DNA from: Patescibacteria group bacterium | Lineage (GTDB): Bacteria > Patescibacteriota > Minisyncoccia > Phycocordibacterales > Phycocordibacteraceae | DNA: 64,000 nt | Assembly: GCA_040390125.1 (NCBI GenBank) | Contig: JAZJYZ010000001.1 | Coordinates: 163,698-227,697 of the forward strand | Direction: 5' to 3' | In this document: in pieces, positions 9,105 to 56,350 of the stretch | How the letters are laid out: each line of letters opens with the position of its first letter | How positions within the stretch are numbered: the stretch's first letter is position 1 | The notes under the pieces: generated by a model | Told to the model about the DNA's origin: nothing | Seen by the model: only the letters and a program-made list of their open reading frames with translations | Databases searched by the model: none | Translations under genes and position numbers: made by a program

Positions 9105-9163
9105 TTGTTAGTGAACAGTGGACAGTGTTTAGGGAAAAGAAACAGCACTATTTTTGAATTCTT

Positions 9164-10685: not shown

Positions 10686-10831
10686 GCTTAGTATTATTGA
10701 CTTGAGTTGAGAAAGTTGTCAAAATATAAATGACATATCTTGAAAATAACTATATTTATATTGAATAAAATAGCTTAAAACTGTTGTTATTTATTTGACA
10801 AAAATATTCAATTCAGCTTAACTGTTCGTAT

Positions 10832-11611
10832 ATGAAGGAGATAGATGAGCTATTACGTGATTTCGGTTTGTCCTCAAAAGAAATCCAAGTCTTGATGGCT
10901 GTTTTTCAAGCAGGCAAAATATCTCCGGCAGCTATTGCAAAACTGACAAAACTTAAAAGACCCACGGTGTATGTTCTTGCAAAAGAGCTCGCAAAACGGG
11001 GGTTTCTTCTGGAGGACACTACAGGAAAGACTATCAATTATCTTCCTACACAGCCTGAATATTTGTCTGAAGTTATCGAACGGGAACATTCAGTTCTTGC
11101 TGAAAAGGAGCGAATCATCAAAAATATTACCGAAAGCTTAAAAAGCTTACCTCGATCTTCCACCTACGCAGTACCAAAGATTCGTTTCGTTGAAGGAGAG
11201 AAGGAGGTCGAGCAGTTTCTGTACCGTCAGATTCCTGAGTGGTTTGCGAGTATGGAGGTAGCTCATACCAGAACGTGGTGGGGGTTTCAAGATAGCTCCT
11301 TCGTTCAATCGGCTCGCTATCGCAAGTGGATAGAGTGGCACTGGAAACAGATGCCAAATGACTTTGACCTTAGATTACTTTCTAATATTTCAGACACAGA
11401 AACCGCCATGCAAGGGAAAATCAGCGAACGACGGAGAATACGCTTCTGGGAAGATGCTGATTTTACAGCCACTCAGTGGTTTATGGGTGAATACTCAGTG
11501 ATGATAATGACATCTGCTACACCGCATTATCTTGTCGAGACGAAAGATGCGGTGTATGCAAGAAATATGCGTGCATTATTCAAACATTTATGGCAGGAAG
11601 TTTCAAAATAA
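10832..11611 (+). CDS. TrmB/MarR-like winged-helix transcriptional regulator
   Basis: N-terminal HTH region LSSKEIQVLMAVFQAGKISPAAIAKLTKLKRPTVYVLAKELAKRGFL. Confidence 0.65.
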   Translation: MKEIDELLRDFGLSSKEIQVLMAVFQAGKISPAAIAKLTKLKRPTVYVLAKELAKRGFLLEDTTGKTINYLPTQPEYLSEVIEREHSVLAEKERIIKNITESLKSLPRSSTYAVPKIRFVEGEKEVEQFLYRQIPEWFASMEVAHTRTWWGFQDSSFVQSARYRKWIEWHWKQMPNDFDLRLLSNISDTETAMQGKISERRRIRFWEDADFTATQWFMGEYSVMIMTSATPHYLVETKDAVYARNMRALFKHLWQEVSK

Positions 11612-11731
11612 GTGCAGAAGGACTGAAGCCCGACAGCTGACCCCCACGGGGACTGAGATTTATAGCCAATCGTTGAACTCTTGGACAAATCGGGAGCCTG
11701 CAAGCTTCTGTGTTAGGATTTCTGCATGAAT

Positions 11732-11846
11732 CCCGTTAGAAATTGCGAATGCGAAACAGATAGAAATGGACTGCTGAGGTCGATGTTTAGTATTTTAAAT
11801 ATAGGTAGGTGCGAGGCACAGGCATTCGCATTCTATTTCTAACGGG
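11732..11846. repeat. Long imperfect inverted repeat (21-25-nt arms cccgttagaaattgcgaatgc / gcattcgcattctatttctaacggg) enclosing about 70 nt; it ends exactly at the tpiA start codon
   Basis: Arms are reverse complements with one 4-nt bulge. Confidence 0.55.
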
Positions 11847-12599
11847 ATGAAAAAACTCATCGTCGGTAACTGGAAACTGTATGTGAATACTCCTGCTGAA
11901 GGCAAAAAGCTCATTCGTGACATTGATAAGAAACTGCCCCGTGGACTCAAAGTGGAAGTAGCACTATGTCCGCAAGTGTCGCTCGCACCTCTTTTGAAGA
12001 GTGAGTATAAAGGGAAACGAATGTCTTTTGGTACGCAGGATGTTTTTTTCGAAGGGGGTGGAGCTCATACGGGGCAGACGTCTCCAAAAGCTCTTGTCGC
12101 ATCTGGAATTAAGTATGTAATTGTGGGGCACGCAGAAAGAAGAGCAGAGGGGGACACTGATGAAATTGTTGCAAAAAAAGCAGTCACGGCAATTAAGGCA
12201 AAATTGCACCCAATCGTGTGTGTTGGTGAACCATCTCGTGACTCTGAGGGTGTGTATTTAACATATCTTGCGAACAGCGTGATTTCTTCACTCGCTCGTA
12301 TTGAAGCTACGGACGCTTCAAAATTTACTATTGCGTATGACCCACTGTGGGCCATTGGTGCCCCGCTCGCTCCATCGCCTCGCATTGTTGCGGAGGCGGT
12401 TATGTTCATCAGAAAAACTATTGCAGATATGTGGGGACGAGAACGTGCGCTGAAAGTTCGTATTATTTATGGAGGCTCAGTCAATGCAGAAAGTGCTGCA
12501 TTGTTTGCAGCAACTCCTGGTATACAAGGCCTTCTTCCGGGACGTGCAAGTGTTGACGCAGAAGAATTTACAGGAATCATTCGGGCTTTCAATTCGTAA
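11847..12599 (+). CDS. tpiA: Triosephosphate isomerase
   Basis: 250-aa ORF that reads as triosephosphate isomerase; directly upstream of pgk, the usual glycolytic pairing. Confidence 0.93.
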   Translation: MKKLIVGNWKLYVNTPAEGKKLIRDIDKKLPRGLKVEVALCPQVSLAPLLKSEYKGKRMSFGTQDVFFEGGGAHTGQTSPKALVASGIKYVIVGHAERRAEGDTDEIVAKKAVTAIKAKLHPIVCVGEPSRDSEGVYLTYLANSVISSLARIEATDASKFTIAYDPLWAIGAPLAPSPRIVAEAVMFIRKTIADMWGRERALKVRIIYGGSVNAESAALFAATPGIQGLLPGRASVDAEEFTGIIRAFNS

Positions 12600-17859: not shown

Positions 17860-19224
17860 ATGCGTGCCGATTGGCTACTTCGTTTCATTGTCCCCGTACT
17901 CTGTATCGGGACGGTCATTGGTGCGGGAGCATATTCGGTATTTGCACCTGAAAAACTTTCCTCGCTTTTTGAGGATTCCATTGGTAGTACCTCTGTCATT
18001 GAAGGTGTGGTTATTAGAGATCCTGATCAACGTGAACGCACGACGCATCTTGCAGTGGAGGTGCAAAAGTTGAATGGCGTTTCTGTTACAGAGAAGGTGC
18101 GAGTGCTTATTTTCTCAGATACGTTTGAGACTGCCGTCTATGGCGACCGCATTAGTGTGAAAGGAAAAATTAAAAAGCCCGAACCATTTGAAACTGATTC
18201 AGGGCGAACATTTAATTATCCAAAATATCTTCGTGCGCACGGCATTCTTTACACGATGTCTTCACCGAGTGTTGCGAAACTAGCGACGGGAGAAGGGAAC
18301 CCTATTGTTGCAGAGCTTCTCTCAATAAAGCACTCGTTTATCAAGGGTATCGAGCGTGCGGTGCCAGAACCTGAATCAGCCTTGCTTGCAGGGTTACTTC
18401 TTGGCGAGAAGCAGTCGCTCGGCGAAAAGCTCACGGAAGCATTCCGCAATGCTGGCGTGGTGCACATCATCGTGCTCTCTGGCTACAACGTGGCACTCGT
18501 TATTCAATGGATTTCGTTCGTATTTTTAAAAATATTTTCACAGAGGGTGGCGTATATTTTTTCCGCACTTTTTGTCGTTGGCTTTGCGATAATGACCGGC
18601 GGATCTGAAACGACTATTCGCGCCCTCATCATGGCGCTTCTCATGATGGTTGCAACCGTTTTGCATCGACCAAAGGCAGCACTTCGCATGCTCGCCATTG
18701 CTGCCGCCACAATGGCAGTCATGAATCCGTTTATCGTTTTGTATGATCTCTCGTTCCAGCTCTCCATTCTTGCAACGCTCGGGCTCATACTATTTTCTGA
18801 AACACTCGCGAGTCGTTTAACGTTCATTCCTAATTTTAAATACTTCCCATTTCGGGAAATTGTATCGACGACTCTGGCAACGCAGGTAACCGTGTTGCCA
18901 CTTCTTATATTTTCTATTGGAGCAGTATCTCTTGTATTTTTGCCCGCGAATGTTCTGGTTCTTCCGGCAGTTCCTGTTGCAATGTTTGTTGGATTCTTTG
19001 CATCGATTACTGCACTTCTCTCGCCGATACTCGCTTTTCCATTAAGTATTGTTGCGTATGGAATTCTTTCCTACATTATTTCTATCGCAACATTTTTTGG
19101 GTCACTGCCATTTGCATCGCTCCCTATTCCACGGGAGTGGATGTGGCCACTGTTAATGGTGCTCGGGTTTGCGTATGCGACCATTGGATGGTTACTGTTT
19201 CACCTAAGGCAGAAATTTTTCTAG
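17860..19224 (+). CDS. comEC: ComEC/Rec2 DNA-internalization channel protein (N-terminal OB-type domain plus the polytopic competence domain); it lacks the C-terminal metallo-beta-lactamase domain
   Basis: LLGEKQSLGEKLTEAFRNAGVVHIIVLSGYNVALV competence-domain signature; 454 aa, ending after the membrane domain. Confidence 0.85.
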   Translation: MRADWLLRFIVPVLCIGTVIGAGAYSVFAPEKLSSLFEDSIGSTSVIEGVVIRDPDQRERTTHLAVEVQKLNGVSVTEKVRVLIFSDTFETAVYGDRISVKGKIKKPEPFETDSGRTFNYPKYLRAHGILYTMSSPSVAKLATGEGNPIVAELLSIKHSFIKGIERAVPEPESALLAGLLLGEKQSLGEKLTEAFRNAGVVHIIVLSGYNVALVIQWISFVFLKIFSQRVAYIFSALFVVGFAIMTGGSETTIRALIMALLMMVATVLHRPKAALRMLAIAAATMAVMNPFIVLYDLSFQLSILATLGLILFSETLASRLTFIPNFKYFPFREIVSTTLATQVTVLPLLIFSIGAVSLVFLPANVLVLPAVPVAMFVGFFASITALLSPILAFPLSIVAYGILSYIISIATFFGSLPFASLPIPREWMWPLLMVLGFAYATIGWLLFHLRQKFF

Positions 19225-19235
19225 CGTGCATATAT

Positions 19236-19265
19236 AAAAAGCCCTCAAATGAAGGCTTTTTATAA
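19236..19265. terminator. Hairpin agccctc aaatg aaggct with flanking A/T runs; a likely bidirectional terminator between convergent comEC and sod
   Basis: Imperfect 7-bp stem with a T-run. Confidence 0.45.
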
Positions 19266-19431
19266 AGCAATTGTCTACGCTCTTATTATTTATACATGCG
19301 ATTGCCTCTGGGCTCGCTTTGCGTTACGCCTCTGTGCACGTTCCCGGCGCAACATGTTAAAGTAATGCCGGAACCGCCATGATGCTGGCATTGCATTGGT
19401 ATATCTTTCATCCATATTTTAGTATAGTACA

Positions 19432-20016
19432 CTAACTAGTTGCCTTTGTCAAGCACTTACTAACAACTACGCCGTTCAGGTTTTTAAAGAAGGCCTCTAT
19501 ATATTGTTTTTTCTCAGCCGGAGTGTAATCCACCATGTAGGCGTGCTCCCACATATCGAGTGCAAGAATTGTTTTTGTGTCGTTGAGTTGTCCTAACTCG
19601 TGGTCAGCAACAAAGTGAGTGAGGAAGTTTTTAGTTGTTGCATCATATGAAAGCAATGCCCAGCCGATGCCTCGCATCATTCCGACGGCTTTAAATTCAT
19701 TTTCCCATGATTCATATGAGCCGTACTGCGATACGAGTGCATCCTTGAGAGAGCCTTCGATAGGGGCGGGCGTTCCCTCCCACTGTGAGAAGTAGTGTTC
19801 GTGCATGCGCATGCCGTTCCACTCAAATCCGATGCGTCGAGTTACTTCAGCGAGGGCGTATGCGTTTTTTTCTGAATCTTTTTTCAGATCCAGAGCGGTT
19901 TCCTCAAGTGTGTTTAAAAATTTCACATAGCCCTCATATAGCTTGATGTGTATCTCAAGTTGCTTTGGTGAAATACCGTCCAAGTTTCCAAAGGTGAATT
20001 TTTTTGCAGTGTACAT
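19432..20016 (-). CDS. Fe/Mn superoxide dismutase
   Basis: DMWEHAYMVDY motif. Confidence 0.93.
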   Translation of the reverse strand: MYTAKKFTFGNLDGISPKQLEIHIKLYEGYVKFLNTLEETALDLKKDSEKNAYALAEVTRRIGFEWNGMRMHEHYFSQWEGTPAPIEGSLKDALVSQYGSYESWENEFKAVGMMRGIGWALLSYDATTKNFLTHFVADHELGQLNDTKTILALDMWEHAYMVDYTPAEKKQYIEAFFKNLNGVVVSKCLTKATS

Positions 20017-20193
20017 ATGAATTAGTGATCAGTGTACAGGGTTCAGTGTTTAGAGAAAAATCTTCTGAGTGGCTATTTGGGCCTTGGGAGCATTATATCA
20101 TTGTGGGTGTGGCGAGAATCCCAGTGAGCAGACTTTTGGTGTTACGACGCTTCGTATGGAAATATTTAAATTTTAAAGCGAATAGCTATTTGA

Positions 20194-21087
20194 TTGCACT
20201 GCATGAGTAATCTTAAAACGAGTCGCACTACAGGATACCAAAAGGTCGCTACCGGGCAGGTGTTCCTCATCGGCATCCTTGTTTTTGGGAATATTTTTGT
20301 ATGGACTATTCCTGTTCCGCACGGGCTTAAAGTTTCATTCCTCAACATTGGACAAGGGGATTCTATTTTTATAGAAGGGCCTACTGGCATACAAATGCTT
20401 GTCGATGCGGGACCTCCAGACAAGTCAGTACTGCGAGAACTTGGAAGCGTAATGCCTCTTTTTGATCGCTCCATCGATGCAGTAGTAGAGACGCATCCCG
20501 ACCAAGATCACCTTGGAGGTATTCCTGATGTGTTTGACCGCTATCAGGTCGGGACATTTTTAGAGCCAGGAATTCCAAATGACACAAAAGCAACGAAGGC
20601 TGTTGTGCTCGCAGTAGAGAAGTCAGGAGTAAAAGATATTGTTGCGAGGCGGGGTATGCGGTTAATTCTTGGCGGTGGGGCATACGCGGATATTCTTTTC
20701 CCTGATAGGGATCTACCAAAGATTGAAACGAACACTGGCTCAATAGTAATGCGTGTTGTGTATGGAAACACATCGTTTTTATTAAACGGGGATTCTCCGC
20801 AGGTAATTGAAAAATATTTGGTGTCAATTGATGGCAAACAACTTCAAAGCACTGTGCTTAAAGCAGGGCACCATGGCTCGAAAAGTTCGAGTACTTCTGA
20901 ATTTGTGAAAGTAGTGAACCCGAAGTACGGAATTTTCTCGAGAGGGTGTGACAATAAATACGGACATCCAGCACCTATCGTCGCTCAATTGTTTTCGAAT
21001 CTGCAGATCCCGATCTTTGATACGTGCACTGATGGGCGTATTACGTTTATCTCTGACGGGGAGAGTCTTGCTATAAAAAGGCAATAA
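20194..21087 (+). CDS. Stand-alone ComEC/Rec2-type metallo-beta-lactamase domain protein with one N-terminal TM anchor
   Basis: HPDQDHLGG MBL motif and KAGHHGSKSS typical of the ComEC C-terminal nuclease domain. Confidence 0.8.
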   Translation: MHCMSNLKTSRTTGYQKVATGQVFLIGILVFGNIFVWTIPVPHGLKVSFLNIGQGDSIFIEGPTGIQMLVDAGPPDKSVLRELGSVMPLFDRSIDAVVETHPDQDHLGGIPDVFDRYQVGTFLEPGIPNDTKATKAVVLAVEKSGVKDIVARRGMRLILGGGAYADILFPDRDLPKIETNTGSIVMRVVYGNTSFLLNGDSPQVIEKYLVSIDGKQLQSTVLKAGHHGSKSSSTSEFVKVVNPKYGIFSRGCDNKYGHPAPIVAQLFSNLQIPIFDTCTDGRITFISDGESLAIKRQ

Positions 21088-33727: not shown

Positions 33728-36700
33728 ATGAACGTTATTTCTCGAAGTGTCAATTTTTCGTTTCTTTTTTTCGGGATCTCTTTTGCTTTGGTAGCAGTGC
33801 TTTTTGTTGCATTGCCAACGCCTGTTCATGCTGGTCCTCAAACTGGTGGTTGCGGAGAATCTTGGGGATATGAGTATACCGTAGTAGTAAACCCGTATAC
33901 GCCATTTACTCCTGCTCATGATGCCTGGCACTCACTTCACGGCGGTGATAGCTACACGGTACAGAGTGCATATCAAATAGCTAGCGTTGGTGATGAGGGA
34001 TGTCCTGTTAGTGATCCACCATACATAGCCCCTACTGTTGGCGTTGTCGTAGTTCCTTTAACTATTACTGCGGGTGAATCTTCCCAGCTTGCGTGGGGGG
34101 CCGAGAATACACTTTCTTGTACGGGCACGAACTTTTCAACTGGCTCGGCCACTCAAGGTGTAGTCACTGTTTCTCCAACAGTGACTACAACCTATTCTGT
34201 TAGTTGTACTGACGGTGCTACTACTGTATCGTCGAGTGCTACGCTATTTGTTAATCCACCACCTGTACCCACAGCATCTCTAAGCGCAAGTACAAATTCT
34301 ATTGTCTCAGGGAGCCCCTCAACGCTCACGTGGAATTCCACGAACGCCACTTCGTGTGCAGGTACTAATTTTTCAACCGGCGGAGCAACGGCAGGATCTG
34401 TGAGCGTTTCGCCAGTGAGTAGCACTTCATACCTTGTATCTTGCACAGGGCTTAGTGGATCGGCTTCAGCTTCTGTTACTGTCACCGTAACGCCTCCAGT
34501 CCTCCAAGCAAGTTGTTCAGTTTCATCCACGTCTGCCATTGTTGGGCAAGCAGTCACGTGGACTGCCGTACCTTCCGGTGGTACCGGCTCCTACACGTAT
34601 TCCTGGAGTGGAAGTGATAGTCTTTCAGGTACAGGAAGTTCAGTTTCGAAATCATACTCATCGACGGGTACCAAAACTGGCTCTGTTAGTGTCACCTCTG
34701 GATCGCAAACAACTTCGGTGACTTGCTCGAACAGTGTGTCGATAAGTAATGCTCCAGTTGCTGTTTCTTGTTCAGTATCTCCAACCTCTGCCACCGTCGG
34801 TAGCTCTGCTACGTGGAGCGCAAGTGCCTCAGGTGGCACCGGCTCCTACACGTATTCGTGGACTGGTACTGACAGTCTTTCCGGCACGGGTGCGTCTGTA
34901 TCCAAAACATATTCCACGACGGGAACAAAAACTGGATCGGTAACGGCAACCTCCGGCGGACAATCGGCTACAGCAAATTGTTCAAACAGTGTAGTGGTGA
35001 GTAACACTCCAGTAACTGGTTCTTGTTCGGTGTCGCCATCTTCTCAAACAACAGGCAGTGCCGTCACGTGGAGCGCAAGTGCTTCCGGTGGCACCGGCTC
35101 GTACAGCTATGTATGGAGTGGCACCGATAGTCTTTCAGGCAGTGCCAGTTCCGTTTCGAAGACGTATTCAAGCACTGGCACGAAGAGTGGCTCAGTAATA
35201 ATTACTTCAGGGGGAAATTCTACGAGCGTGACCTGTGCAAACTCGGTATCAGTAAGTTATCCGGCAATTACCGGCTCGTGCTCTGTGTCGCCTACAACTA
35301 TCACCGCAGGTGGTTCTGCAACGTGGAGTGCAAGTGCTTCTGGTGGCTCCGGTTCCTACACGTATTCTTGGAGTGGTACGGACAGCCTTTCTGGCACAGG
35401 CACATCAGTCACAAAAACCTACTCCAGTTCGGGTGCGAAGACTGCCTCGATTACTATTACTTCAGGCGGAAGTTCCGAGGTAATTAACTGCTCTAATGCA
35501 CTCACGGTAGGTAATGTGCCGGTAGGTGGTTCCTGCTCTGTAACGCCAACCAGTATGTATGCCGGTAGTTCTGCAACATGGACTGCTGTACCTTCAGGTG
35601 GCACCGGCTCGTACACGTATGTATGGAGTGGCACTGACAGTCTTTCAGGTACTGCTAGCTCGGTTTCAAAAACGTATTCAGGAAGCGGTATTAAGACGGG
35701 TTCCGTCGCAATCACTTCAGGAGGAAATTCTGCTACTGTGACGTGTTCGAATTCTGTTGCAGTGAGTGTGACGTTGTCGGATCTCATTACTGGTGCTGTG
35801 TCTCCAACTTCTGCCGTTGCAGGTGTTGCACAAATGTTTTCTGCAACAATCACCAACATTGGGCAGTCTGGGACGAATGGTGCTTTCACGAGTTTATTCC
35901 AGCGAGCAACATCTGCAGGTGGTGCAAATACGACCGATATTGGCACCGATGGCTCTCCGAGTGTGTCTGCAAATGGTACAGACGTGGCTGGGCTTTCGTA
36001 TGCGTTTCCCTCAGGAGGTATTTGGTACTTACGTGTTTGGGCCGACAAAAGCGGAACGGCGGATTCGGGGGCCATTAATGAGTCGAGTGAAAGCAATAAC
36101 TCAGGTGCATGGACTGCAATCTCTGTGTCGAGCCCAACATTGAGTGCGTACTGTAATGTCGCACCTGCCTCGGGATATTCTGGAGATACATTTACGTGGA
36201 CGGCATACCCATCTGGTGGCACCGGCTCCTACACCTATTCGTGGACTGGCAGTGACGGACTCTCCGGCACCACGCAAAGTGTTGCAAAATCATATTCGAC
36301 TTCTGGCACTAAGACTGGTTCCGTGACGGTGGTTTCTGGCGGGCAATCGGTAGGTGCCACATGTGCATCTGCAAATCTATCGAATGTTCCAAGTGCGCTC
36401 ATAACCGCAACTCCAAATTCTATTATTCTTGGCAACACGTCTCGTCTTGACTGGACTTCTTCAAACGCATCTTCCTGTAACAGTTCTGCTTTCTCGACCG
36501 GCGGGGCACCATCGGGTTCCGTAACCGTTACCCCTTTAACTACAAAAACCTATGACCTGACCTGTACTGATGGCACACGAACAGGTGTCTCTAGCGCAAC
36601 GGTGACCGTCGTTCCTGTTGGACTCACGCTTTCAATCAATCCTTCAACGACAGTTCGTCAAGGGGATCCTGCAACAGTTAACTGGTCAGTGAGTGGAAGT

Positions 36701-36871
36701 CCTGATTCTTGTTCAATTCAGGGTCCTGGTCTCTCATCAACCGCTCTCTCTGGGTCACGGGTAGTGACTATTACTGCGGAGAGCACTTACGTCCTCACGT
36801 GTACCTCAGGAGGTTCTTCGATAACCACTTCAGTCACTATAGGCCTGACCCCCCACTTTGAAGAGTTTTAA
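33728..36871 (+). CDS. Giant 1047-aa secreted Ser/Thr/Gly-rich tandem-repeat protein. It has a signal peptide, 6 copies of an 85-aa Cys-bracketed module (CSVSPTS..TW.A.ASGGTGSYTYSW.GTDSLSGTG.SVSKTYS.TGTKTGSV...C.NSV.VSN) and 4 copies of a second roughly 70-aa module (L.W.S.NA.SC....FSTGGA..GSV.V.P....Y.L.CT). It is inserted between rplB and rpsS
   Basis: Uninterrupted 3144-nt ORF; about 255-bp nucleotide-level tandem repeats (ggtggcaccggctcctacacgtattcgtgg recurs at 34576, 34830, 35088, 35342, 35596, 36212); hydrophobic N-terminus ending ...PTPVHA. Confidence 0.8.
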   Translation: MNVISRSVNFSFLFFGISFALVAVLFVALPTPVHAGPQTGGCGESWGYEYTVVVNPYTPFTPAHDAWHSLHGGDSYTVQSAYQIASVGDEGCPVSDPPYIAPTVGVVVVPLTITAGESSQLAWGAENTLSCTGTNFSTGSATQGVVTVSPTVTTTYSVSCTDGATTVSSSATLFVNPPPVPTASLSASTNSIVSGSPSTLTWNSTNATSCAGTNFSTGGATAGSVSVSPVSSTSYLVSCTGLSGSASASVTVTVTPPVLQASCSVSSTSAIVGQAVTWTAVPSGGTGSYTYSWSGSDSLSGTGSSVSKSYSSTGTKTGSVSVTSGSQTTSVTCSNSVSISNAPVAVSCSVSPTSATVGSSATWSASASGGTGSYTYSWTGTDSLSGTGASVSKTYSTTGTKTGSVTATSGGQSATANCSNSVVVSNTPVTGSCSVSPSSQTTGSAVTWSASASGGTGSYSYVWSGTDSLSGSASSVSKTYSSTGTKSGSVIITSGGNSTSVTCANSVSVSYPAITGSCSVSPTTITAGGSATWSASASGGSGSYTYSWSGTDSLSGTGTSVTKTYSSSGAKTASITITSGGSSEVINCSNALTVGNVPVGGSCSVTPTSMYAGSSATWTAVPSGGTGSYTYVWSGTDSLSGTASSVSKTYSGSGIKTGSVAITSGGNSATVTCSNSVAVSVTLSDLITGAVSPTSAVAGVAQMFSATITNIGQSGTNGAFTSLFQRATSAGGANTTDIGTDGSPSVSANGTDVAGLSYAFPSGGIWYLRVWADKSGTADSGAINESSESNNSGAWTAISVSSPTLSAYCNVAPASGYSGDTFTWTAYPSGGTGSYTYSWTGSDGLSGTTQSVAKSYSTSGTKTGSVTVVSGGQSVGATCASANLSNVPSALITATPNSIILGNTSRLDWTSSNASSCNSSAFSTGGAPSGSVTVTPLTTKTYDLTCTDGTRTGVSSATVTVVPVGLTLSINPSTTVRQGDPATVNWSVSGSPDSCSIQGPGLSSTALSGSRVVTITAESTYVLTCTSGGSSITTSVTIGLTPHFEEF

Positions 36872-36896
36872 TTTAGCCGTTTAGTGCTATTGGACC

Positions 36897-36926
36897 CTTT
36901 GTGCAACCTCCGGAGGTTGCACAAAG
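36897..36926. repeat. REP-like perfect palindrome ctttgtgcaacctcc|ggaggttgcacaaag (left flank of the transposase gene)
   Basis: The exact palindrome is shared with 37648-37689. Confidence 0.65.
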
Positions 36927-36945
36927 AGTGTGGTAGCCTAAATTG

Positions 36946-37638
36946 ATGCCTAAAGCATTACCAAAGTCGCGAGAAGGAATTGCTCCGGGGGAGTATTATC
37001 ATATTGTTAATCGTGGCGCTCATCGACAGACGATCTTTAAAGAAAAAAGCGACTGGCGCCGATTTCTTTTTAATGTGTTGTTTCTTCAATCTCCACATCA
37101 ATTTAAAAACATACATCGGATTACGGAAAGCTTTCTTCCAGATATTGGCTTTGCTGTCCCTAACGAAGATATCGAGGCTATCATAGAGAGTCGTTTTGTA
37201 GAAGTGGTTTGTTTTTGTCTCATGTCAAACCATTTTCACTTACTGGTCAAAGAAACTACTGAAGGCGGAATCGCACGCTATATGCAGCGTGTCTCTGACG
37301 GATACACAAAATATTACAATGTTAAATATGAAGCTACTGGGCATGTATTTCAGGGTCCATACAAAGCGGTGCATGTAAAAACAGACTCTCAGCTTCTCTA
37401 CACATCCGCCTATATTCATAGAAATCCTCGTGACATACGAGAGTGGTCAGGGAAGGAGTTTGAATACCCGTGGTCGTCACTCCAAGATTTTACTGACGCA
37501 AATCGATGGGGAGGACTCATAGTGCCCGAGATTGTTACGGGTCAGTTTTCCGTCACACCTAAAAGTAATTATGCTGATTTTGTTAAAACAACAACCGCCA
37601 AACTTTTAGCTGAGGAGCTTGAAGGCATCATTCTATAA
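36946..37638 (+). CDS. IS200-like / REP-associated tyrosine (Y1, HuH) transposase
   Basis: YHIVNRG..., HuH motif CLMSNHFHLLVKE, catalytic-Tyr region YTSAYIHRNP; 230 aa. Confidence 0.75.
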   Translation: MPKALPKSREGIAPGEYYHIVNRGAHRQTIFKEKSDWRRFLFNVLFLQSPHQFKNIHRITESFLPDIGFAVPNEDIEAIIESRFVEVVCFCLMSNHFHLLVKETTEGGIARYMQRVSDGYTKYYNVKYEATGHVFQGPYKAVHVKTDSQLLYTSAYIHRNPRDIREWSGKEFEYPWSSLQDFTDANRWGGLIVPEIVTGQFSVTPKSNYADFVKTTTAKLLAEELEGIIL

Positions 37639-49511: not shown

Positions 49512-50276
49512 ATGATTGCAACAGAAAAAGATATTCCGATTCTTCGAGAGGGCGGAAAACATCTCGCAAGTGTGCTTAACGCAGTTGCGAAAGCTACTGT
49601 ACCCGGTGTTTCAACCGACGAGCTCAATACTCTTGCAGAAAAACTAATACGGGACTTTGGGGACACGCCATCGTTAGTCGGATACACGCCTCGAGGAGCT
49701 TCACGTCCATACCCTGCAACTATCTGTATTTCAATAAACGAGGAAGTGGTACACGGCATTCCAAATGAAAACCCGAGCATTATTAAAGAAGGAGACGTTG
49801 TTGGGCTTGATTGTGTCCTCTCGCATGGTGGTCTCTTGGTGGATAGCGCACTCACCGTAATTGCAGGTAAGGGCGACATAGAGGCAAAGGCACTCCTTAA
49901 AGCAACCGAAGAAGCACTTATGGCTGGCATTCGTTCCGCAAAAGGAGGTGCACGCATAGGTGACATTAGTTCCGCCATTGAGGCGGTTGGTGTGAAGTGT
50001 GGATACGGTATTGTTTTTGAACTTGGAGGGCACGGAGTGGGGAATACAGTACATGAAGAGCCGTATGTGCCGAACGTTGGAGACGCTGGCACTGGCACAC
50101 TTTTAACTCCAGGTCTTGTCATTGCTATTGAGCCAATGTTTACGGAAGGTACGCCCCGTGTGAAGCTTTTGAAAGATGGATATACATTCGTGACGACAGA
50201 CGGTTCTCGTGCCGCACACTTTGAGCACACCATCCTCATCACTGAAGGAAAACCTGAAATACTTACGAGACTGTAA
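49512..50276 (+). CDS. map: Methionine aminopeptidase type I
   Basis: Pita-bread fold sequence; operon position. Confidence 0.9.
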   Translation: MIATEKDIPILREGGKHLASVLNAVAKATVPGVSTDELNTLAEKLIRDFGDTPSLVGYTPRGASRPYPATICISINEEVVHGIPNENPSIIKEGDVVGLDCVLSHGGLLVDSALTVIAGKGDIEAKALLKATEEALMAGIRSAKGGARIGDISSAIEAVGVKCGYGIVFELGGHGVGNTVHEEPYVPNVGDAGTGTLLTPGLVIAIEPMFTEGTPRVKLLKDGYTFVTTDGSRAAHFEHTILITEGKPEILTRL

Positions 50277-50331
50277 GGGCACAATTTCCCCAGTTTGCGC
50301 AAGGGAGAGGCTTGCTGGTATAACTGCATCA

Positions 50332-50598
50332 ATGGCATTTGACTCACGTGGTCCGGAAGGATCTCATGACAGAAAACCAATCAAGTCGCTTGTACTTATG
50401 CAGTACCCTCCTCCATTAATATTTCCGATCAAGCCCACTACTCCAGCACGAGAGCAATATTTTGGTTCTGACCAATGTAAGGGTTGTTCTGGATGGGGAG
50501 AGCAATATCAGGGATATACGAATGAAAGAGGGGTGTCTGTGTCTACGTTGTTGCTCCCATGCAAAGTGTGCGGTGGAACGAAGAAAAAGCCAGCCTAA
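50332..50598 (+). CDS. Hypothetical small protein with DnaJ-type zinc-finger motifs CKGCSGWG ... CKVCGGTK (start uncertain; the track ORF begins inside map)
   Basis: CxxCxGxG repeats; occupies the position where infA/rpmJ would be expected. Confidence 0.3.
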   Translation: MAFDSRGPEGSHDRKPIKSLVLMQYPPPLIFPIKPTTPAREQYFGSDQCKGCSGWGEQYQGYTNERGVSVSTLLLPCKVCGGTKKKPA

Positions 50599-50642
50599 AT
50601 ATAATCTTGACAAAATAATTTTCAAAAGGCACAGTAGCTTCC

Positions 50643-50813
50643 ATGACTGTTTTTGGTGCAGAGGCGTTGGATACTACAGAATGTGGGCCTGTGAAGGCGA
50701 GAGAAGTCTGGTGTGTTGCCTGTGAGGCAACTGGAAAATTAAAGGGAGAAGAATGCCCGCATTGTGAGGGAAGGAAAAAAGTGAAAGTTGCTGTTTCATC
50801 GAGAAAGTTTTAA
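50643..50813 (+). CDS. Unlisted 56-aa zinc-ribbon protein MTVFGAEALDTTECGPVKAREVWCVACEATGKLKGEECPHCEGRKKVKVAVSSRKF
   Basis: Manual translation; CxxC-x10-CxxC of the CxxCxG type; below the track cutoff. Confidence 0.35.
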   Translation: MTVFGAEALDTTECGPVKAREVWCVACEATGKLKGEECPHCEGRKKVKVAVSSRKF

Positions 50814-50881
50814 GTGGAGGCATTTGTAGCGTGGTCACTTTGATTGTTGTCTGTTAGCATAAGAAACCCTTTAGGGGTTTT

Positions 50882-51598
50882 ATGAATACAGGAAACATTC
50901 GCTCCAACACTTTTCCCACAAGTGTCACTTTCCCTGAAGTAACTATAGAGCTAGTTCGTACAAGGTTTGAATACGGCGACATCTCCACTTTTATTTTCAA
51001 ATCCGAAGAATCTATTTCTTTTAAAGCAGGTCAGTACGTACACCTCCGTCTTTCAAATGTAGCCTCAGGGCATAAGGCAGTACGTGAGTTTTCCTTCGCC
51101 TCTGTACCAGGAGAAAAGGAAATCTGGTTTTCAGTAAATACTCGTTCCGGCAGTCCATATCAGGTAGCGTTGCGGGCACTCGTGCCTGGCAACAAAGCGT
51201 CTCTCTTCAAGATTAAAGGTGAGATGGTTGTGCCGGAAGACTTGGGTGCACACATAGTGTTAATTGCACACGGCGTCGGTATGGCGCCGTTTCGTGCAAT
51301 TCTTCATGATGCTCATGCCCGAGACCTGAATGTAGATTTCACACTGGTACAAGTAGACAAAGAAAAGTACCTCTATGAAGAGGAGATTAGAGAGTTGTCT
51401 TATGAGCAGCATCGAATTACTCGTGTGCAATTAGGAGAAACACTCGAAGGTGTCATTCAAAAACACCCGGGAGCGTATTTTTTCTTAGCCGGCTCTCTGT
51501 CGTTTGTGGAAAGTATCAAAGGCAAGCTTATCGGGAGAGGTGTGAGTGTTGAAAAAATAAAAACTGACATCTTTAAAGGTCTTACTGATGATTTTTAG
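50882..51598 (+). CDS. FNR-type FAD/NAD(P)-binding oxidoreductase (ferredoxin-reductase-like electron transfer protein)
   Basis: REFSFAS (RxYS-type FAD motif) and HGVGMAPF NAD-binding motif. Confidence 0.7.
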   Translation: MNTGNIRSNTFPTSVTFPEVTIELVRTRFEYGDISTFIFKSEESISFKAGQYVHLRLSNVASGHKAVREFSFASVPGEKEIWFSVNTRSGSPYQVALRALVPGNKASLFKIKGEMVVPEDLGAHIVLIAHGVGMAPFRAILHDAHARDLNVDFTLVQVDKEKYLYEEEIRELSYEQHRITRVQLGETLEGVIQKHPGAYFFLAGSLSFVESIKGKLIGRGVSVEKIKTDIFKGLTDDF

Positions 51599-51683
51599 GA
51601 TTCCATGGCAGGTTCTACGAAAATTTTAAACTTTAAATGGTATGTTAGACTAACGATGTTATTTAAAAATATTTTGGTGTTCT

Positions 51684-51749
51684 ATGGCAAAAGGAAATCA
51701 CTCGCAGAAAAAAGAGATGAAGAAGCCGAAGAAAGATAAGAAGAAGTAA
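51684..51749 (+). CDS. Unlisted 21-aa lysine-rich micro-ORF MAKGNHSQKKEMKKPKKDKKK, followed by a strong terminator
   Basis: Manual translation; terminator aaaaggcaccc gta gggtgcctttt at 51755-51780. Confidence 0.25.
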   Translation: MAKGNHSQKKEMKKPKKDKKK

Positions 51750-51754
51750 GTAGC

Positions 51755-51780
51755 AAAAGGCACCCGTAGGGTGCCTTTTC
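51755..51780 (+). terminator. Rho-independent terminator ggcaccc-gta-gggtgcc then TTTTCTCTTC
   Basis: 7-bp GC stem with a T-run. Confidence 0.6.
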
Positions 51781-51813
51781 TCTTCTCCAATCGGTAGCGT
51801 TACAATATGCACT

Positions 51814-52338
51814 ATGTCGCCTAAAGCGTATTGGAGCTTTTTTGTACTAGCGGTAAGCATGTGTGCCATCGGGGCTTGGATTTTTTTTGAATCTCCGCAT
51901 TCGCCAGCGTCTCAAGTGGCTTCTTGTACTGAGGAGGCAAAAATTTGTCCTGATGGTAGAGCGGTGATGCGTGGGGGGCCCGCATGTGAATTTGCGCCCT
52001 GCTTAGCGCCTGTCTACAACTGGATTGTGAGTGATACAGAAACAAAGAGTCGCTCCGGTGCGCCTCTCATTAACGTGGCGCTTTCCTTGAACGGTAAAGA
52101 ATACCAAGCAGGAACATACGAGGGTGCATGTGCGGAAATTGGCGATGCCGAGTGGCCACTTCTCATTGGCGAAGAAGCAGGAGCGGCTTGTTGGTTTGGA
52201 GCTACCGGCATTGAGCTTGGTGTGTTTGAGGAGCAGGGGCGGTTGGTTTTGAAAAGGGCAGTGCTCAAAGAGGGTACAAATTCCGAAATCGTTCGAGATA
52301 ATTTTGAAACATTGATGAAACTTGGGTCAAATATCTGA
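51814..52338 (+). CDS. Hypothetical membrane-anchored Cys-containing protein
   Basis: N-terminal TM helix; 8 Cys in the predicted extracytoplasmic part. Confidence 0.45.
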   Translation: MSPKAYWSFFVLAVSMCAIGAWIFFESPHSPASQVASCTEEAKICPDGRAVMRGGPACEFAPCLAPVYNWIVSDTETKSRSGAPLINVALSLNGKEYQAGTYEGACAEIGDAEWPLLIGEEAGAACWFGATGIELGVFEEQGRLVLKRAVLKEGTNSEIVRDNFETLMKLGSNI

Positions 52339-52382
52339 TTGCCCGCAGGTGCGTGCGAGCGACACGTTATACTACTTGATAC

Positions 52383-55265
52383 ATGCCAGGATTTAATCCC
52401 AACAAAGGAATCGATACAAAAGCGGCAAAGCTCTCACCTGAGCATCAGCTTACGAAGCTTCGTGAGACTGCACGCTCAGGTGGTGGTGGCAGGGGTCAGC
52501 GAGGAGGTCCGGCATTGCCCGTTGAAACCTCTGTCCTTCCGGCTGTTTCGCAAGCTCTTGATGGCACCGAACAGGAAGAGAAGAGTGGCATCATTCTTGA
52601 ACTCACACCAGACTCAAATGACAAGGACATGGAAGAGCTTTTGGGGATTCTCCACGCTAGAGGATTCAAAGCGGTGATGAAAGAGCTCGACCGCATAGAT
52701 AATCCGCACCTTGAAGACGATTTTCATCGTTTACTTGTTCAATACCGAACGGCAGGGCACTCGATTCCGGGTCTTGATCCTAACGACCCTCTAGCAAAGG
52801 CACTCGATTTTGTACTTTTGGATGTTGCAGTTCCTGAGGCAGCACCGGGAAAACCAGGAGGCTCTTTGAAAGATATCTGTACGCAAATGGAGCAGTTTTA
52901 TTTGAGTATGATTCCGTTTGTTGCCCTGCCGGATACTGTGTTTTTGAAGGATTGGCAAAAACGACGGAGAATTCATCTCCAACATTTCACATTGGAAATC
53001 GCTGTTTCGCACACAAAAGAAGAGGCAGTCTTTTACCTATCAGTGCCTCGTGCGAAACGGGAGACTTTCGAAAAGCAGATTTTTGCGATGTTTCCTCGTG
53101 CGCGTGTCGTTGAAAAGAAGGATGACTACAATATCTTTAACCAGTTTGGTGCAACTGTGGGTGCTTCTGCGTACTATCATCGTCCGCCACCAATCCCCTT
53201 GAAGACCTCTGAGGAGTTTACCCACGATCCTTTGAACGTCACCCTAGCTGCACTATCGAAAATTACAAAAGAAGGGGAGGGAGCTGCAATTCAGATTGCG
53301 GTTGCTCCTGCGGGCGATTATCACTCGAAGCGTATCCGCTATGTGCTCGATGAGCTCAATAAAGGAAAGAGCGGGGCGAACGATGTGTTCCGAAAGAATA
53401 TGTATATGGAGCATTATTCGCCGATGCGTCGATTTTTCCAGAACCTCGGGAAAGGTTTCAAACTATTTCTTGAAAGTTCCGAGGAAAAAAAGAAGGACGA
53501 TAAGCATATTGATGCCTTTGCGACAGAGGCAGTGTCCAAAAAACTGAAGAGCGTTATTGTGGGTGTGAATTTACGCATCGTTGCTTCGGCTCGAACAAAA
53601 GAACGGGCTCATGCGATTCTCACTGAGATCGAAAATACGTTCGGGCAGTACGAAGATGCAAAGGCAAACCGACTTCGCTTTAAGCATTTAAAAAAGAAAG
53701 AACTCCGAGATTTCCTACGTGCATTTATCTTTCGAACGTTCGATCGCCAAGCACACGAGGGCTTTTTCTATCAGCTTTGGCTTGAGTGGACACGCAAAGC
53801 TGCGCCAACGCCTTTAATGCATAAGATTCCTTTGATGCCTATGAACTTGGCAGAACTTTCAACCATTTTTCACCTCACCATTGCTGGTGGTACGGCGTCT
53901 CGTGAAGCGAAGACTGCAAGCGCTAAGCTTGCACCTGCACCACCAGGGCTTCCAGACAAAGGAATTGTCATTGGTAATAATCGCTACTCGAATATTGCAA
54001 CACCCATTCATTTCACGCCGGACGACAGGCTCCGTCACATGTACACCATCGGACAGACCGGTACCGGTAAAACAAACTTCTTGAAGAATATGATTATTCA
54101 AGACATCGAAAATGGGGAAGGAGTGTGCTTCATCGACCCGCACGGCGTGGATGTATTGGAGATACTCTCACGCATTCCGAAAGAACGTTATGACGATCTC
54201 ATTTACTTCGACCCGGCCTATACCGCACGGCCCATGGGCCTCAACATGCTTGAGTATGATCCACGGTTTCCTGAGCAAAAGACATTCGTGGTGGATGAGA
54301 TGTTTAAGATTTTCAAAAAATTGTACGGCGATGTGCCGGAAGCTTTTGGTCCTATCTTCGAGCAGTACTTCCGTAATGCCACCATGCTTGTGCTTGAGGA
54401 CCCTGACACTGGTTCCACGTTGATGGATATTTCACGAGTACTCGCTGACGATGAATTCCGTGCGTTGAAACTTTCTCGTTGCAGAAATCCCGTCGTGACG
54501 CATTTCTGGGAAGACATTGCGGAAAATGTGCGTGGCGAAGGAGACTTGCGTAACGTCGTGCCGTACATCACGTCAAAGTTCGACATCTTCATCGCAAACG
54601 AAATTATGCGTCCAATCATAGGTCAGCAACGTTCCGCCTTCAATTTCAAGGACATCATGGACAATAAGAAGATACTTTTAGTGAACCTCTCCAAGGGTCG
54701 ACTTGGTGATGTGAATGCCAACCTCATTGGTCTTGTGATTGTCGGCAAGATTATGATGACCGCACTTGCACGCACGGAATATCTACATTTGAATCCGCCG
54801 AACTTCTATCTATATATCGACGAATTCCAAAATATCACCACCAACACTATTTCAACGATTCTCTCTGAAGCACGTAAATTCCGTCTCTCTATGACCATGG
54901 CACACCAGTATGTCGCACAGCTTGGCAAAGAAATCAAAGAGGCTGTTTTCGGTAACGTGGGCACCATGGCGGTGTTCCGTGTTGGGCCAGACGATGCTGA
55001 ATATATTTCAAAACAATTTCAGCCAACATTTGAAGTCACTGATTTCCTTAAAATCGATAATTACCATGCATACTTGAAGCTTCTTGCAGGAGGAAAGCCA
55101 GCACCACCGTTTAGTATAGAAACTATTCCATTCCAGCCGGGCGATTTCCTTAACATTGATGCTCTGAAGCAGATTTCATATCAGCGCTATGGACGAGCAC
55201 GAGAAGCGGTTGAAGCTGATATCCGTCAGAAATACGACCAGATGCGGGAAAACCAGAAAGACTAG
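52383..55265 (+). CDS. 960-aa protein. The C-terminal half is a VirD4/TraD/TrwB-like type IV coupling-protein P-loop ATPase; the N-terminal ~450 aa has no recognisable domain
   Basis: Walker A GQTGTGKTN followed by FIDPHG, Walker B YLYIDEFQNI, and an SEARKFRLSMTMAHQ TraD/VirD4-type motif. Confidence 0.7.
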   Translation: MPGFNPNKGIDTKAAKLSPEHQLTKLRETARSGGGGRGQRGGPALPVETSVLPAVSQALDGTEQEEKSGIILELTPDSNDKDMEELLGILHARGFKAVMKELDRIDNPHLEDDFHRLLVQYRTAGHSIPGLDPNDPLAKALDFVLLDVAVPEAAPGKPGGSLKDICTQMEQFYLSMIPFVALPDTVFLKDWQKRRRIHLQHFTLEIAVSHTKEEAVFYLSVPRAKRETFEKQIFAMFPRARVVEKKDDYNIFNQFGATVGASAYYHRPPPIPLKTSEEFTHDPLNVTLAALSKITKEGEGAAIQIAVAPAGDYHSKRIRYVLDELNKGKSGANDVFRKNMYMEHYSPMRRFFQNLGKGFKLFLESSEEKKKDDKHIDAFATEAVSKKLKSVIVGVNLRIVASARTKERAHAILTEIENTFGQYEDAKANRLRFKHLKKKELRDFLRAFIFRTFDRQAHEGFFYQLWLEWTRKAAPTPLMHKIPLMPMNLAELSTIFHLTIAGGTASREAKTASAKLAPAPPGLPDKGIVIGNNRYSNIATPIHFTPDDRLRHMYTIGQTGTGKTNFLKNMIIQDIENGEGVCFIDPHGVDVLEILSRIPKERYDDLIYFDPAYTARPMGLNMLEYDPRFPEQKTFVVDEMFKIFKKLYGDVPEAFGPIFEQYFRNATMLVLEDPDTGSTLMDISRVLADDEFRALKLSRCRNPVVTHFWEDIAENVRGEGDLRNVVPYITSKFDIFIANEIMRPIIGQQRSAFNFKDIMDNKKILLVNLSKGRLGDVNANLIGLVIVGKIMMTALARTEYLHLNPPNFYLYIDEFQNITTNTISTILSEARKFRLSMTMAHQYVAQLGKEIKEAVFGNVGTMAVFRVGPDDAEYISKQFQPTFEVTDFLKIDNYHAYLKLLAGGKPAPPFSIETIPFQPGDFLNIDALKQISYQRYGRAREAVEADIRQKYDQMRENQKD

Positions 55266-55391
55266 GCGACGCTTCGTCGGATCCGTAGGGATCACTTAGT
55301 GTTTATAGAAACTTCTTATAATTTCTGAGCTCGCCCTCCCCTAAACACTAAACGCTAGCCCCTAACCCCTCTTAGTGGTATAGTCGCTTCA

Positions 55392-56003
55392 ATGAATACA
55401 GATGCAAAATTTGAGAATGAGCGCACGCTAGTCATATTGAAGCCTGACGCTGTGCAACGCTCTCTCGTGGGCGAGATAATGAAGCGTATTGAAAGGACGG
55501 GACTAAAGTTTGTGGCCTTCAAGTTTGGTATCGCTACGGAAGATCAACTTGTTCGTCACTACAATAAGGACGAAAAGTGGTTTCTTGAGAAAGGAACTCG
55601 AATATTGAATGACCGAACCACCCATAACTTGCCAATAGAGAAGGATGCGCTTGGGTACGGTAAAGAAATAATAGATTCAATAGTGAAATTCATGACTGCA
55701 GGTCCTGTATTAATGATGGTGATTGAAGGAAATGAGTCAGTAGCCGTTGTGAAGAAGCTTGTGGGTGCCACAGAGCCAAAGACATCGGATGTCGGGACTA
55801 TTCGAGGTGACTACACTGTGGATTCGTATGACCACTCATCGGTACAGAGTCGTGCCGTCAGAAACCTCGTCCACTGCTCTGAATCTCCTGAAGAAGCATC
55901 ACGTGAAATTGCCGTGTGGTTTAAGCCCGAAGAAATTTTGAAATATCGTATCGTTCAGGAGCAGATCCTCTACGATGTGAACCTTGACGGGATAATGGAG
56001 TAG
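55392..56003 (+). CDS. ndk: Nucleoside diphosphate kinase (with an internal insertion)
   Basis: LVILKPDAVQR..., ...NLVHCSESPEEASREIAVWF. Confidence 0.88.
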   Translation: MNTDAKFENERTLVILKPDAVQRSLVGEIMKRIERTGLKFVAFKFGIATEDQLVRHYNKDEKWFLEKGTRILNDRTTHNLPIEKDALGYGKEIIDSIVKFMTAGPVLMMVIEGNESVAVVKKLVGATEPKTSDVGTIRGDYTVDSYDHSSVQSRAVRNLVHCSESPEEASREIAVWFKPEEILKYRIVQEQILYDVNLDGIME

Positions 56004-56041
56004 CTTCCAGCTTCCAGCTTCCAGCTTCCAGAGAAAATTGT

Positions 56042-56350
56042 ATGTTTTTAGGAAGGCAAGATGATGCAGTAACAGTAGCCCCTGAGGTACATTCTGTTGT
56101 ATTTGAGAATGAAAAAATTAGAGTTTTAGATGTTGTTGTTCCTGTGGGTTATAAAAGTGGATTGCATTGGCATCCCCAGAATATGGGATATGTTCTCACT
56201 CCGGGCACTTTGCGGTTCACTTTGCCTGATGGGGCAGTAAAAGATGTAGTGTTGTCTCTGAATCAGGTTACACAAGGGGAAGGTGCACATATCGTTGAAA
56301 ATATAGGCACTGAGACCGTAAGAGTGATGCAAATTGAATTCAAGAATTAA
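56042..56350 (+). CDS. Small cupin-domain protein
   Basis: GLHWHPQN...GEGAHIVEN cupin motifs. Confidence 0.65.
   Translation: MFLGRQDDAVTVAPEVHSVVFENEKIRVLDVVVPVGYKSGLHWHPQNMGYVLTPGTLRFTLPDGAVKDVVLSLNQVTQGEGAHIVENIGTETVRVMQIEFKN

Follow-up and report, generated by a model that had tools for sequence, protein, structure and literature searches.

The window analysed here is a stretch of 64,000 nucleotides from a Patescibacteria group bacterium (contig JAZJYZ010000001.1 of assembly GCA_040390125.1), and the gene under study, at 52383-55265 of its forward strand, encodes an ATPase of 960 amino acids (aa) in which a motor of the type found in type IV coupling proteins (T4CPs) is preceded by an N-terminal half predicted to resemble the N-terminal domain of VirB4. 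The reading favoured here, held at about even confidence, is that the protein is a domesticated coupling ATPase, ring-forming and docking through its VirB4-like domain, which moves a substrate conserved across the lineage, most likely for a chromosomal type IV secretion system (T4SS) devoid of relaxase. In Paceibacteria-type genomes the gene is a stable chromosomal one, with Ndk on one side and, on the other, Map, which closes the ribosomal-protein/SecY/Adk operon.

Judged from its homologues, this ATPase is a real feature that chance could by no means produce; over 400 full-length proteins of 920-990 aa match it at E=0, all of them from metagenome-assembled genomes of Patescibacteria/Paceibacteria, and the ATG start is backed by homologues that open with the same residues, such as MPGFNPNKG... 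in P0003. The open reading frame (ORF) and the four motifs quoted in the first-pass annotation of this DNA are real, with the motifs at their exact positions. The features of the gene and its product are the following.

52383-55265, + strand: ATPase gene, ATG start, 960 aa, DUF8128 plus T4CP-type ATPase; product predicted to be soluble
52383-52604, + strand: disordered head (aa 1-74), with a short helix at 19-31 and the Gly/Arg-rich RSGGGGRGQRGG at aa 31-42
52620-52751, + strand: three-helix bundle (aa 80-123), motif NPHxEDDFHRLL
52788-53882, + strand: DUF8128 alpha/beta domain (aa 136-500), predicted fold like that of the VirB4 N-terminal domain
53961-55127, + strand: RecA-type nucleotide-binding domain of VirD4/TrwB type (aa 527-915), from Pfam and Foldseek
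54051-54077, + strand: Walker A / P-loop GQTGTGKTN (aa 557-565), from the sequence
aa 583-588: FIDPHG motif, from the sequence
54273-54662, + strand: all-alpha insertion (aa 631-760) at the position of the T4CP all-alpha domain, from the model
54813-54836, + strand: Walker B YIDEFQNI (aa 811-818), from the sequence
54813-54908, + strand: joint span of Walker B and the EARKFRLSMTMAHQ motif that follows it (aa 829-842), from the sequence
55146-55259, + strand: C-terminal helical hairpin (aa 922-959), with helices 922-936 and 940-959 in the model

Domain architecture of the ATPase

Profile and model comparisons identify the C-terminal half as a coupling-protein ATPase of the VirD4/TrwB type and not as FtsK, with HerA the less likely placement. 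The Pfam matches of the window protein fall within aa 542-588 and aa 808-879; two T4CP models, TraG-D_C (26.7 bits, cut-off 22) and TrwB_AAD_bind (25.5 bits, cut-off 20.5), are above threshold, while FtsK_SpoIIIE (14.6 bits against 24, over only 22 residues around the P-loop) and DUF87, the central domain of HerA (20.8 bits against 23.2), are below it. DUF87 is recorded on some homologues, and T4SS-DNA_transf, TrwB_AAD_bind and TraG-D_C are found on many of them. Comparison with NCBIfam gives only partial sub-threshold matches, the best of which are to TraD/VirD4 models (49 bits against a cut-off of 366 for SXT_TraD), so that the protein differs from established T4CPs in being far below the equivalog cut-offs of these models. 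When the family profile is compared with the sequences of the PDB, only TrwB and DotL are found below E 0.01, with marginal matches centred on the P-loop; phmmer and profile searches of the PDB are uninformative for the N-terminal half.

The structural comparison points in the same direction, since Foldseek aligns the ATPase domain of the AlphaFold2 (AF2) model with TrwB at E 5e-12 and a template modelling score of 0.62-0.67 over about 430 residues. The full-length model also matches Cag-beta, DotL and HerA, the last ranking below VirB4 and TrwB. Neither an FtsK gamma domain nor a HerA barrel is found, the N-terminal model has no HerA match, and no NurA-like neighbour is present in the clustering of neighbours at 85 loci. 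The T4CP motor proposed in the first-pass annotation is thus borne out by two Pfam models above cut-off and by a TrwB score of 0.65, and the firm placement in FtsK/SpoIIIE or HerA that would have spoken against it is not what the profiles give. PADLOC returns only a partial match to a HerA-type ATPase (mad8), and a reading as a defence system is rejected because defence neighbours are lacking.

The motor shares with the T4CP TrwB of R388 (PDB 1e9r/1gki) the RecA-type nucleotide-binding domain, Walker A and B, the downstream AHQ motif and the all-alpha insertion, which in the AF2 model consists of eight helices between the strands 606-609 and 764-768. In the alignment of 53 homologues, the Walker A residues G557, Q558, T559, G560, G562, and K563 are invariant and T561 is near-invariant; D813, E814, F815, N817, R831, K832, A840, H841, and Q842 are invariant as well. 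In contrast to TrwB and VirD4, the window protein has no N-terminal transmembrane helices and carries an additional N-terminal region of about 450 aa.

This region had been described as coiled-coil-rich, without recognisable motif and of unknown function. Structure prediction of the N-terminal domain, which had been suggested as a check, was run and supports a VirB4-like alpha/beta fold and no coiled coil; the models show instead a disordered head, a three-helix bundle and an alpha/beta domain. Moreover, Pfam PF26449 (DUF8128) is precomputed on homologues at 92-49% identity and on the syntenic genes of five related loci (L001-L005); the window protein itself has no PF26449 match in the Pfam scan and is assigned to DUF8128 by close homology. 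The best Foldseek matches of the full-length model also include chains of TrwK, the VirB4 of R388 (PDB 7o42/8rtd), over about 900 aligned columns, which implies that both domains align in order. According to the model, the N-terminal half is folded like that of VirB4 and the whole protein is a VirB4-like N-terminal domain joined to a VirD4-like motor, an arrangement that resembles VirB4 in the succession of a VirB4-type N-terminal domain and an ATPase domain.

The AF2 model has a mean predicted local distance difference test (pLDDT) score of 77. In the head, pLDDT is below 50 at aa 1-17 and 29-74, and the consensus KLRExxRSGGxGGG is retained in the long forms of the family. The bundle helices (80-93, 95-105, and 108-123) reach pLDDT values of 84-90, and in their motif NPHxEDDFHRLL the residues H109, D112, and D113 are invariant and F114, H115, and R116 near-invariant; only the long, Paceibacteria-type forms have the bundle, which the forms of about 800 aa lack. 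A conserved junction, PMNLxELxTxFHL, is also present in the N-terminal half.

The lack of a membrane anchor noted in the first-pass annotation holds for the window protein and for 53 family members by hydropathy. No transmembrane helix is detected with a 19-residue Kyte-Doolittle window, whose highest value (1.71, aa 777-795) is inside the ATPase core; outside this core no window exceeds 1.6, and the highest value in the first 500 aa across the 53 members is 1.44.

A side observation regards the bundle. At the related locus L093, an acidic protein of 141 aa (9574-9999) is encoded directly upstream of a short-form gene of 840 aa (10001-12523) and ends one base before it; among 792 ORFs it is the best match to the three-helix-bundle profile (hmmsearch E 0.007, hhalign E 0.008, aa 79-125). 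The equivalent ORF in L094 does not match this profile, and the L093 protein, a single weak case, may represent an N-terminal module that was split off or fused.

Chromosomal setting and conservation

The gene order of the window is S12-S7-EF-G-EF-Tu-S10...SecY-Gmk-Adk-Map, the ATPase gene, Ndk, a cupin, a beta-CASP nuclease, and L20/L35/IF-3; PilB, PilC, ComEC, and RecJ are also encoded. The GC content of the ATPase gene (0.46-0.48) is that of the surrounding window, and a scan of 50200-56100 for promoters and terminators did not outperform shuffled sequence. The window ORFs scanned include no T4SS or relaxase gene, and neighbours within 4 kb at 85 related loci do not include any recurrent T4SS component, relaxase or dedicated small partner; the earlier statement that T4SS and relaxase genes are missing from the window is confirmed for the ORFs scanned, and no conjugative element surrounds the gene.

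Searched against 1.84 billion representatives, a profile built on the first 525 residues gives 2005 clusters at E<=1e-3, including forms of about 800-840 aa that lack the first ~130 residues and whose match begins at about profile position 130. The scan of GTDB species representatives yields at least 515 loci, and the 80 loci retrieved are all from Patescibacteria. Where the flank is long enough, 47 of 59 loci have Map upstream and 43 of 55 have Ndk downstream; out of 43 loci, 33 carry the two genes and 8 neither of them. Neighbour clustering at the 85 loci gives Map (53), Ndk (52), Adk (47), beta-CASP (41), SecY (36), and DUF2238 (34), with the conserved order SecY-Adk-Map-[ATPase gene]-Ndk-beta-CASP.

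The mean identity to the window proteins across 39 genomes is 54.5% for the ATPase, 57.7% for Map, 50.8% for Ndk, and 66.5% for SecY; from these sequence comparisons, the family has changed about as fast as Map and Ndk, and it is inherited with the chromosome across Patescibacteria, under strong constraint. The conservation is unevenly distributed along the protein, with mean identities of 34% in the head (aa 1-74), 67% in the bundle, 47% in aa 136-500, 77% in the ATPase domain (aa 527-915, minimum 64%), and 51% in the C-terminal hairpin; the all-alpha insertion (aa 631-760), at 83%, is the most conserved part. Classical coupling proteins vary in their all-alpha domain, which is specific to the substrate. 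The window protein shows the opposite of this expectation, and the conservation of its all-alpha domain implies one conserved ligand across the lineage.

More distant DUF8128-T4CPs, with 30-32% identity and collinear from aa ~200 to ~948, are found in Saccharibacteria, where the branch counts thousands of members, and in another lineage; here, too, the genes have housekeeping neighbours, such as TopA, PGK, and FtsW in L091. A further housekeeping context is that of L046, where the gene is near RmuC, RecR, and DnaB. In a distant member of Patescibacteria (GCA_030429505.1, L092 280-12571), the DUF8128 ATPase directly follows ribosomal protein L15, in the usual slot of SecY, so that the link with the ribosomal operon reaches beyond the Paceibacteria-type family.

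The short forms are found in housekeeping contexts of other kinds. At some of their loci, an FtsQ-like POTRA_1 gene is located two to three genes upstream (L093 6486-7427; L094 6933-7730; L095 5246-6043), followed in L094 and L095 by a run of unannotated multi-pass membrane proteins, and this proximity could hint at a link with division or the envelope. In L096, a protein of 673 aa (7558-9579) encoded directly downstream of the short-form gene has a faint match to T4SS_pilin (PF18895), which is the only trace of T4SS linkage in the Patescibacteria loci examined.

Two other observations concern the window outside the ATPase locus. ComEC is seemingly split (17860-21087) into a Competence/DUF4131 membrane part (17860-19224) and a separate metallo-beta-lactamase ORF (20194-21087), with an opposite-strand ORF between the two. 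The S10 operon is broken between L2 and S19 (33728-37638) by a PKD/CARDB protein of 1047 aa and an IS200-like Y1 transposase gene; a Y1_Tnp gene just 5' of S19 is also present in two related genomes (L004 1-219; L005 1-70), and for this reason the insertion seems old and stable.

Relatives on plasmids and phages and published Patescibacteria systems

A tblastn search against plasmids aligns aa 170-956 with Bacillus proteins of about 885-913 aa, annotated as "DUF87 domain-containing", at 21% identity; examples are WP_345805471.1 on NZ_CP154917.1 and WP_213380696.1 on NZ_OX419568.1. On both plasmids, the relative is the first gene of a conjugation operon, immediately upstream of a Replic_Relax relaxase that is followed by a TcpE-like protein, VirB4 (AAA_10), a VirB6-like protein, and a lytic transglycosylase. 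No other T4CP is annotated on NZ_CP154917.1 (27.5 kb), which leaves the DUF87/DUF8128 protein as the sole T4CP candidate. In an actinomycete plasmid from Embleya, the order is PrgI, VirB4, a T4CP of 812 aa, and a Replic_Relax relaxase.

These Bacillaceae proteins, also named 'type IV secretory system conjugative DNA transfer family', share with the window protein the architecture, the size class and, by hydropathy, the lack of a transmembrane helix, at about 21% identity. They differ from it in lacking the disordered head and the three-helix bundle, and in their position upstream of a relaxase in a Tcp/Prg-like conjugation operon; the window gene, unlike those of the VirD4/TrwB T4CPs, is linked neither to a relaxase nor to a T4SS, and such linkage is found only in the distant plasmid relatives. 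The N-terminal connection to the plasmid proteins is based on phrog_5156, on precomputed PF26449, which many Bacillaceae members bear, and on structure comparison. In particular, phrog_5156 spans aa 207-959 of the window protein (E 1.7e-72) and is matched by the isolated N-termini of the window protein (E 6.8e-15) and of the Bacillus plasmid protein (E 1.3e-13).

Homologues are also encoded by large Bacillus phages; G gp156, JL ('MsbA-like'), and Slash match the N-terminal model (Foldseek E 1e-13 to 5e-12), and in G gp156 and JL the C-terminal half matches too by tblastn. These proteins differ from the window protein in their viral context and have 20-25% identity to it.

When the ATPase half is considered by itself, its nearest match on a plasmid is of a different kind. 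It is a "T4SS DNA-binding domain" protein of 708 aa from Bradyrhizobium (NZ_CP064708.1, L089 6044-8170), 33% identical over aa 542-916, whose N-terminus has no DUF8128 match and to which the N-terminal profile gives no hhalign match. Its gene is flanked by CHAT-domain and TPR proteins, not by T4SS genes, and it apparently represents another non-conjugative use of the motor.

Orphan T4CP homologues in Patescibacteria have already been described in broad terms. Quinonero-Coronel et al. 2025 (PMC12102498) report 2,474 VirB4 homologues, spread over 2,417 of 3,035 Patescibacteria genomes. Most of these homologues belong to a clade that nests within the monoderm MPF-FATA class; relaxases are almost absent, and the VirB4 genes are near dnaA/dnaN together with VirB3/VirB6/TrsD. 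The same source counts 5,713 VirD4-type T4CP homologues in 2,918 of the 3,035 genomes, only 148 of which are near virB4; the window protein is almost certainly one of them. In S. epibionticum, the t4cp gene is distant from virB4 and non-essential, and exaptation "cannot be ruled out" (PMC12102498), while the T4SS cluster of the same organism is essential and has no recognisable coupling or relaxase proteins (Wang et al. 2023, PMC10633639). The DUF8128/VirB4-like domain, the missing anchor, the Map-Ndk/ribosomal-operon synteny, and the conservation pattern are not described in the available part of PMC12102498, and a full-text literature search for 'DUF8128' found no paper.

Possible roles of the ATPase and its neighbours

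The favoured reading can be set out as follows. The Patescibacteria gene would descend from a monoderm conjugative coupling protein, having been domesticated and left without its relaxase partner. By analogy with TrwB and VirB4, the ATPase would form a ring, and it would be attached to the membrane not by transmembrane helices of its own but through the VirB4-like domain, as VirB4 docks on VirB3/VirB8. ATP would then drive the recruitment or translocation of a substrate conserved across the lineage, a proposal based on the all-alpha domain, which binds the substrate in classical T4CPs and is the most conserved part here; the substrate could be protein, DNA or another nucleic acid. The most likely membrane partner would be the chromosomal, relaxase-less T4SS of monoderm type, which is encoded elsewhere in most Patescibacteria, usually with no T4CP beside it.

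Several points weigh against this proposal. Membrane docking, ring formation and the substrate are all inferred, and the predicted template modelling score of the AF2 model (0.60) makes the inter-domain geometry uncertain. The hhalign comparison of the N-terminal profile from the candidate phyla radiation with single plasmid proteins is weak (E 0.006 for Bacillus, E 0.003 for Embleya). No T4SS gene is linked to the ATPase gene in the window or at the 85 related loci, and the phage homologues presumably work without any T4SS. In S. epibionticum, where the T4SS is essential for epibiotic growth and the t4cp is not (PMC12102498), the essential T4SS function evidently needs no such T4CP; this t4cp may be of the DUF8128 type, but a search from a Saccharibacteria homologue gave no member named as Southlakia/ML1. 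Finally, the published counts of genomes with a T4CP (2,918) and with VirB4 (2,417) imply at least about 500 genomes with the ATPase and without a T4SS.

A possible alternative, on the unlikely side, is a cytoplasmic translocase independent of any T4SS. The protein would then be a soluble hexamer that pumps DNA or RNA and, by analogy with FtsK, HerA or ComFA, has a housekeeping or semi-housekeeping function. It could act in chromosome or dimer clearance at division, in processing or pulling incoming DNA after ComEC, or in repair, with its conjugative ancestry irrelevant to its role. This is consistent with the adjacency to the ribosomal-protein/SecY/Adk/Map operon tail and to Ndk in about 80% of loci, with the other housekeeping contexts (L15 in L092; TopA/PGK/FtsW in L091; POTRA_1 in L093/L094; RmuC/RecR/DnaB in L046), with an ATPase domain about as conserved as SecY, with the phage homologues, with the presence of ComEC, RecJ, and type IV pilus genes in the window genome, and with published data in which T4CP homologues occur in more genomes than VirB4 and are not needed where the T4SS is essential (PMC12102498). 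However, the FtsK and HerA models remain below cut-off and neither the FtsK gamma domain nor the HerA barrel is present, the ComEC and pilus genes are unlinked and more than 30 kb away in the window, and synteny with translation genes is not specific to DNA metabolism. Furthermore, the VirB4-like N-terminal domain is a module for docking to a membrane complex in the one solved case, and the closest characterised context of this architecture is conjugation.

A related and doubtful view is that in DUF8128 ATPases a VirD4-type motor has retained an ancestral N-terminal domain of VirB4 type, which would make this lineage a living intermediate between the two T4SS ATPases. In Patescibacteria the motor would have become a T4SS-independent, phylum-wide housekeeping translocase, co-expressed with the core genes of translation and secretion. 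In such a case, it may move nucleic acid acquired from the host or clear DNA at division.

It is quite improbable that the protein is a divergent VirB4, that is an ATPase that assembles and energises a T4SS, and not a coupling protein. The domain order favours it; on the other side, AAA_10, CagE_TrbE_VirB, and TraC_F_IV give no match at E<=0.1, while a control VirB4 from a Bacillus plasmid matches AAA_10 at 7.7e-116, and the models that match the window protein are T4CP-specific, its ATPase being nearer VirD4 by profile. Moreover, VirB3/VirB6/VirB8 genes do not accompany the ATPase gene, the operon of the related plasmids contains a bona fide VirB4 of its own, and the VirB4 genes of Patescibacteria are reported near dnaA/dnaN, not at the ATPase locus (PMC12102498).

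The first-pass annotation had drawn attention to the immediate neighbours of the gene, and its description of them as a Cys-rich membrane protein and an FNR-like ORF is correct.

50882-51598: FNR-like reductase ORF
51814-52338, + strand: Cys-rich protein, 174 aa, 7 Cys, one N-terminal hydrophobic segment (Kyte-Doolittle 2.02)

The ATPase had been proposed there as a possible motor of a non-classical system of DNA uptake or export, in an organism with a type IV pilus and ComEC, but nothing in the present analysis links the gene to those loci. That such a motor works with the adjacent Cys-rich protein and the FNR-like one is very improbable. In favour of this proposal, the Cys-rich gene is on the same strand with a gap of 44 nt, and its product, which has no Pfam match, carries an N-terminal membrane segment. 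Nevertheless, it is beside the ATPase gene in only 3 of 80 species-level loci (L008-L010, the closest relatives, at 71-89% identity with the N-terminal query), and not one of the 80 has the FNR-like gene. Map directly precedes the ATPase gene in most genomes, and the two genes are inserted between them; the conserved neighbours are Map and Ndk, and neighbour clustering at the 85 loci reveals no recurrent partner outside housekeeping functions. Synteny thus largely refutes this proposal, and the two proteins are rejected as partners.

Two small ORFs with Cys motifs, of 129 aa (50209-50598) and 56 aa (50643-50813), are located between Map and the FNR-like gene and both contain CxxC pairs; the shorter one has weak sub-threshold matches to Anti-TRAP and DnaJ CXXCXGXG. 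They are part of the lineage-specific insertion between Map and the ATPase gene.

That the gene is left over from a prophage or from a conjugative or mobilisable element once integrated here, as the relatives on plasmids and phages and the IS200-like gene elsewhere in the window might suggest, has a negligible probability and is refuted for practical purposes by the lack of flanking relaxase, integrase or T4SS genes, by a GC content matching the window, by synteny across dozens of species, and by a divergence that tracks Map, Ndk, and SecY.

Patescibacteria account for much of the diversity of bacteria and rely on host cells, and their relaxase-less T4SS is essential for the host-dependent lifestyle in the one lineage tested, Saccharibacteria. 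The protein described here offers several handles on this biology: a coupling-type ATPase, predicted to be soluble, with a VirB4-like candidate docking domain, a fixed chromosomal address that eases the finding of orthologues, an unusually conserved putative substrate-binding domain, and relatives in plasmids and phages of Bacillus that are amenable to experiment. It also has a bearing on the divergence of the VirB4 and VirD4 motors and, if the ATPase acts without a T4SS, it would represent a new housekeeping use of conjugation hardware.

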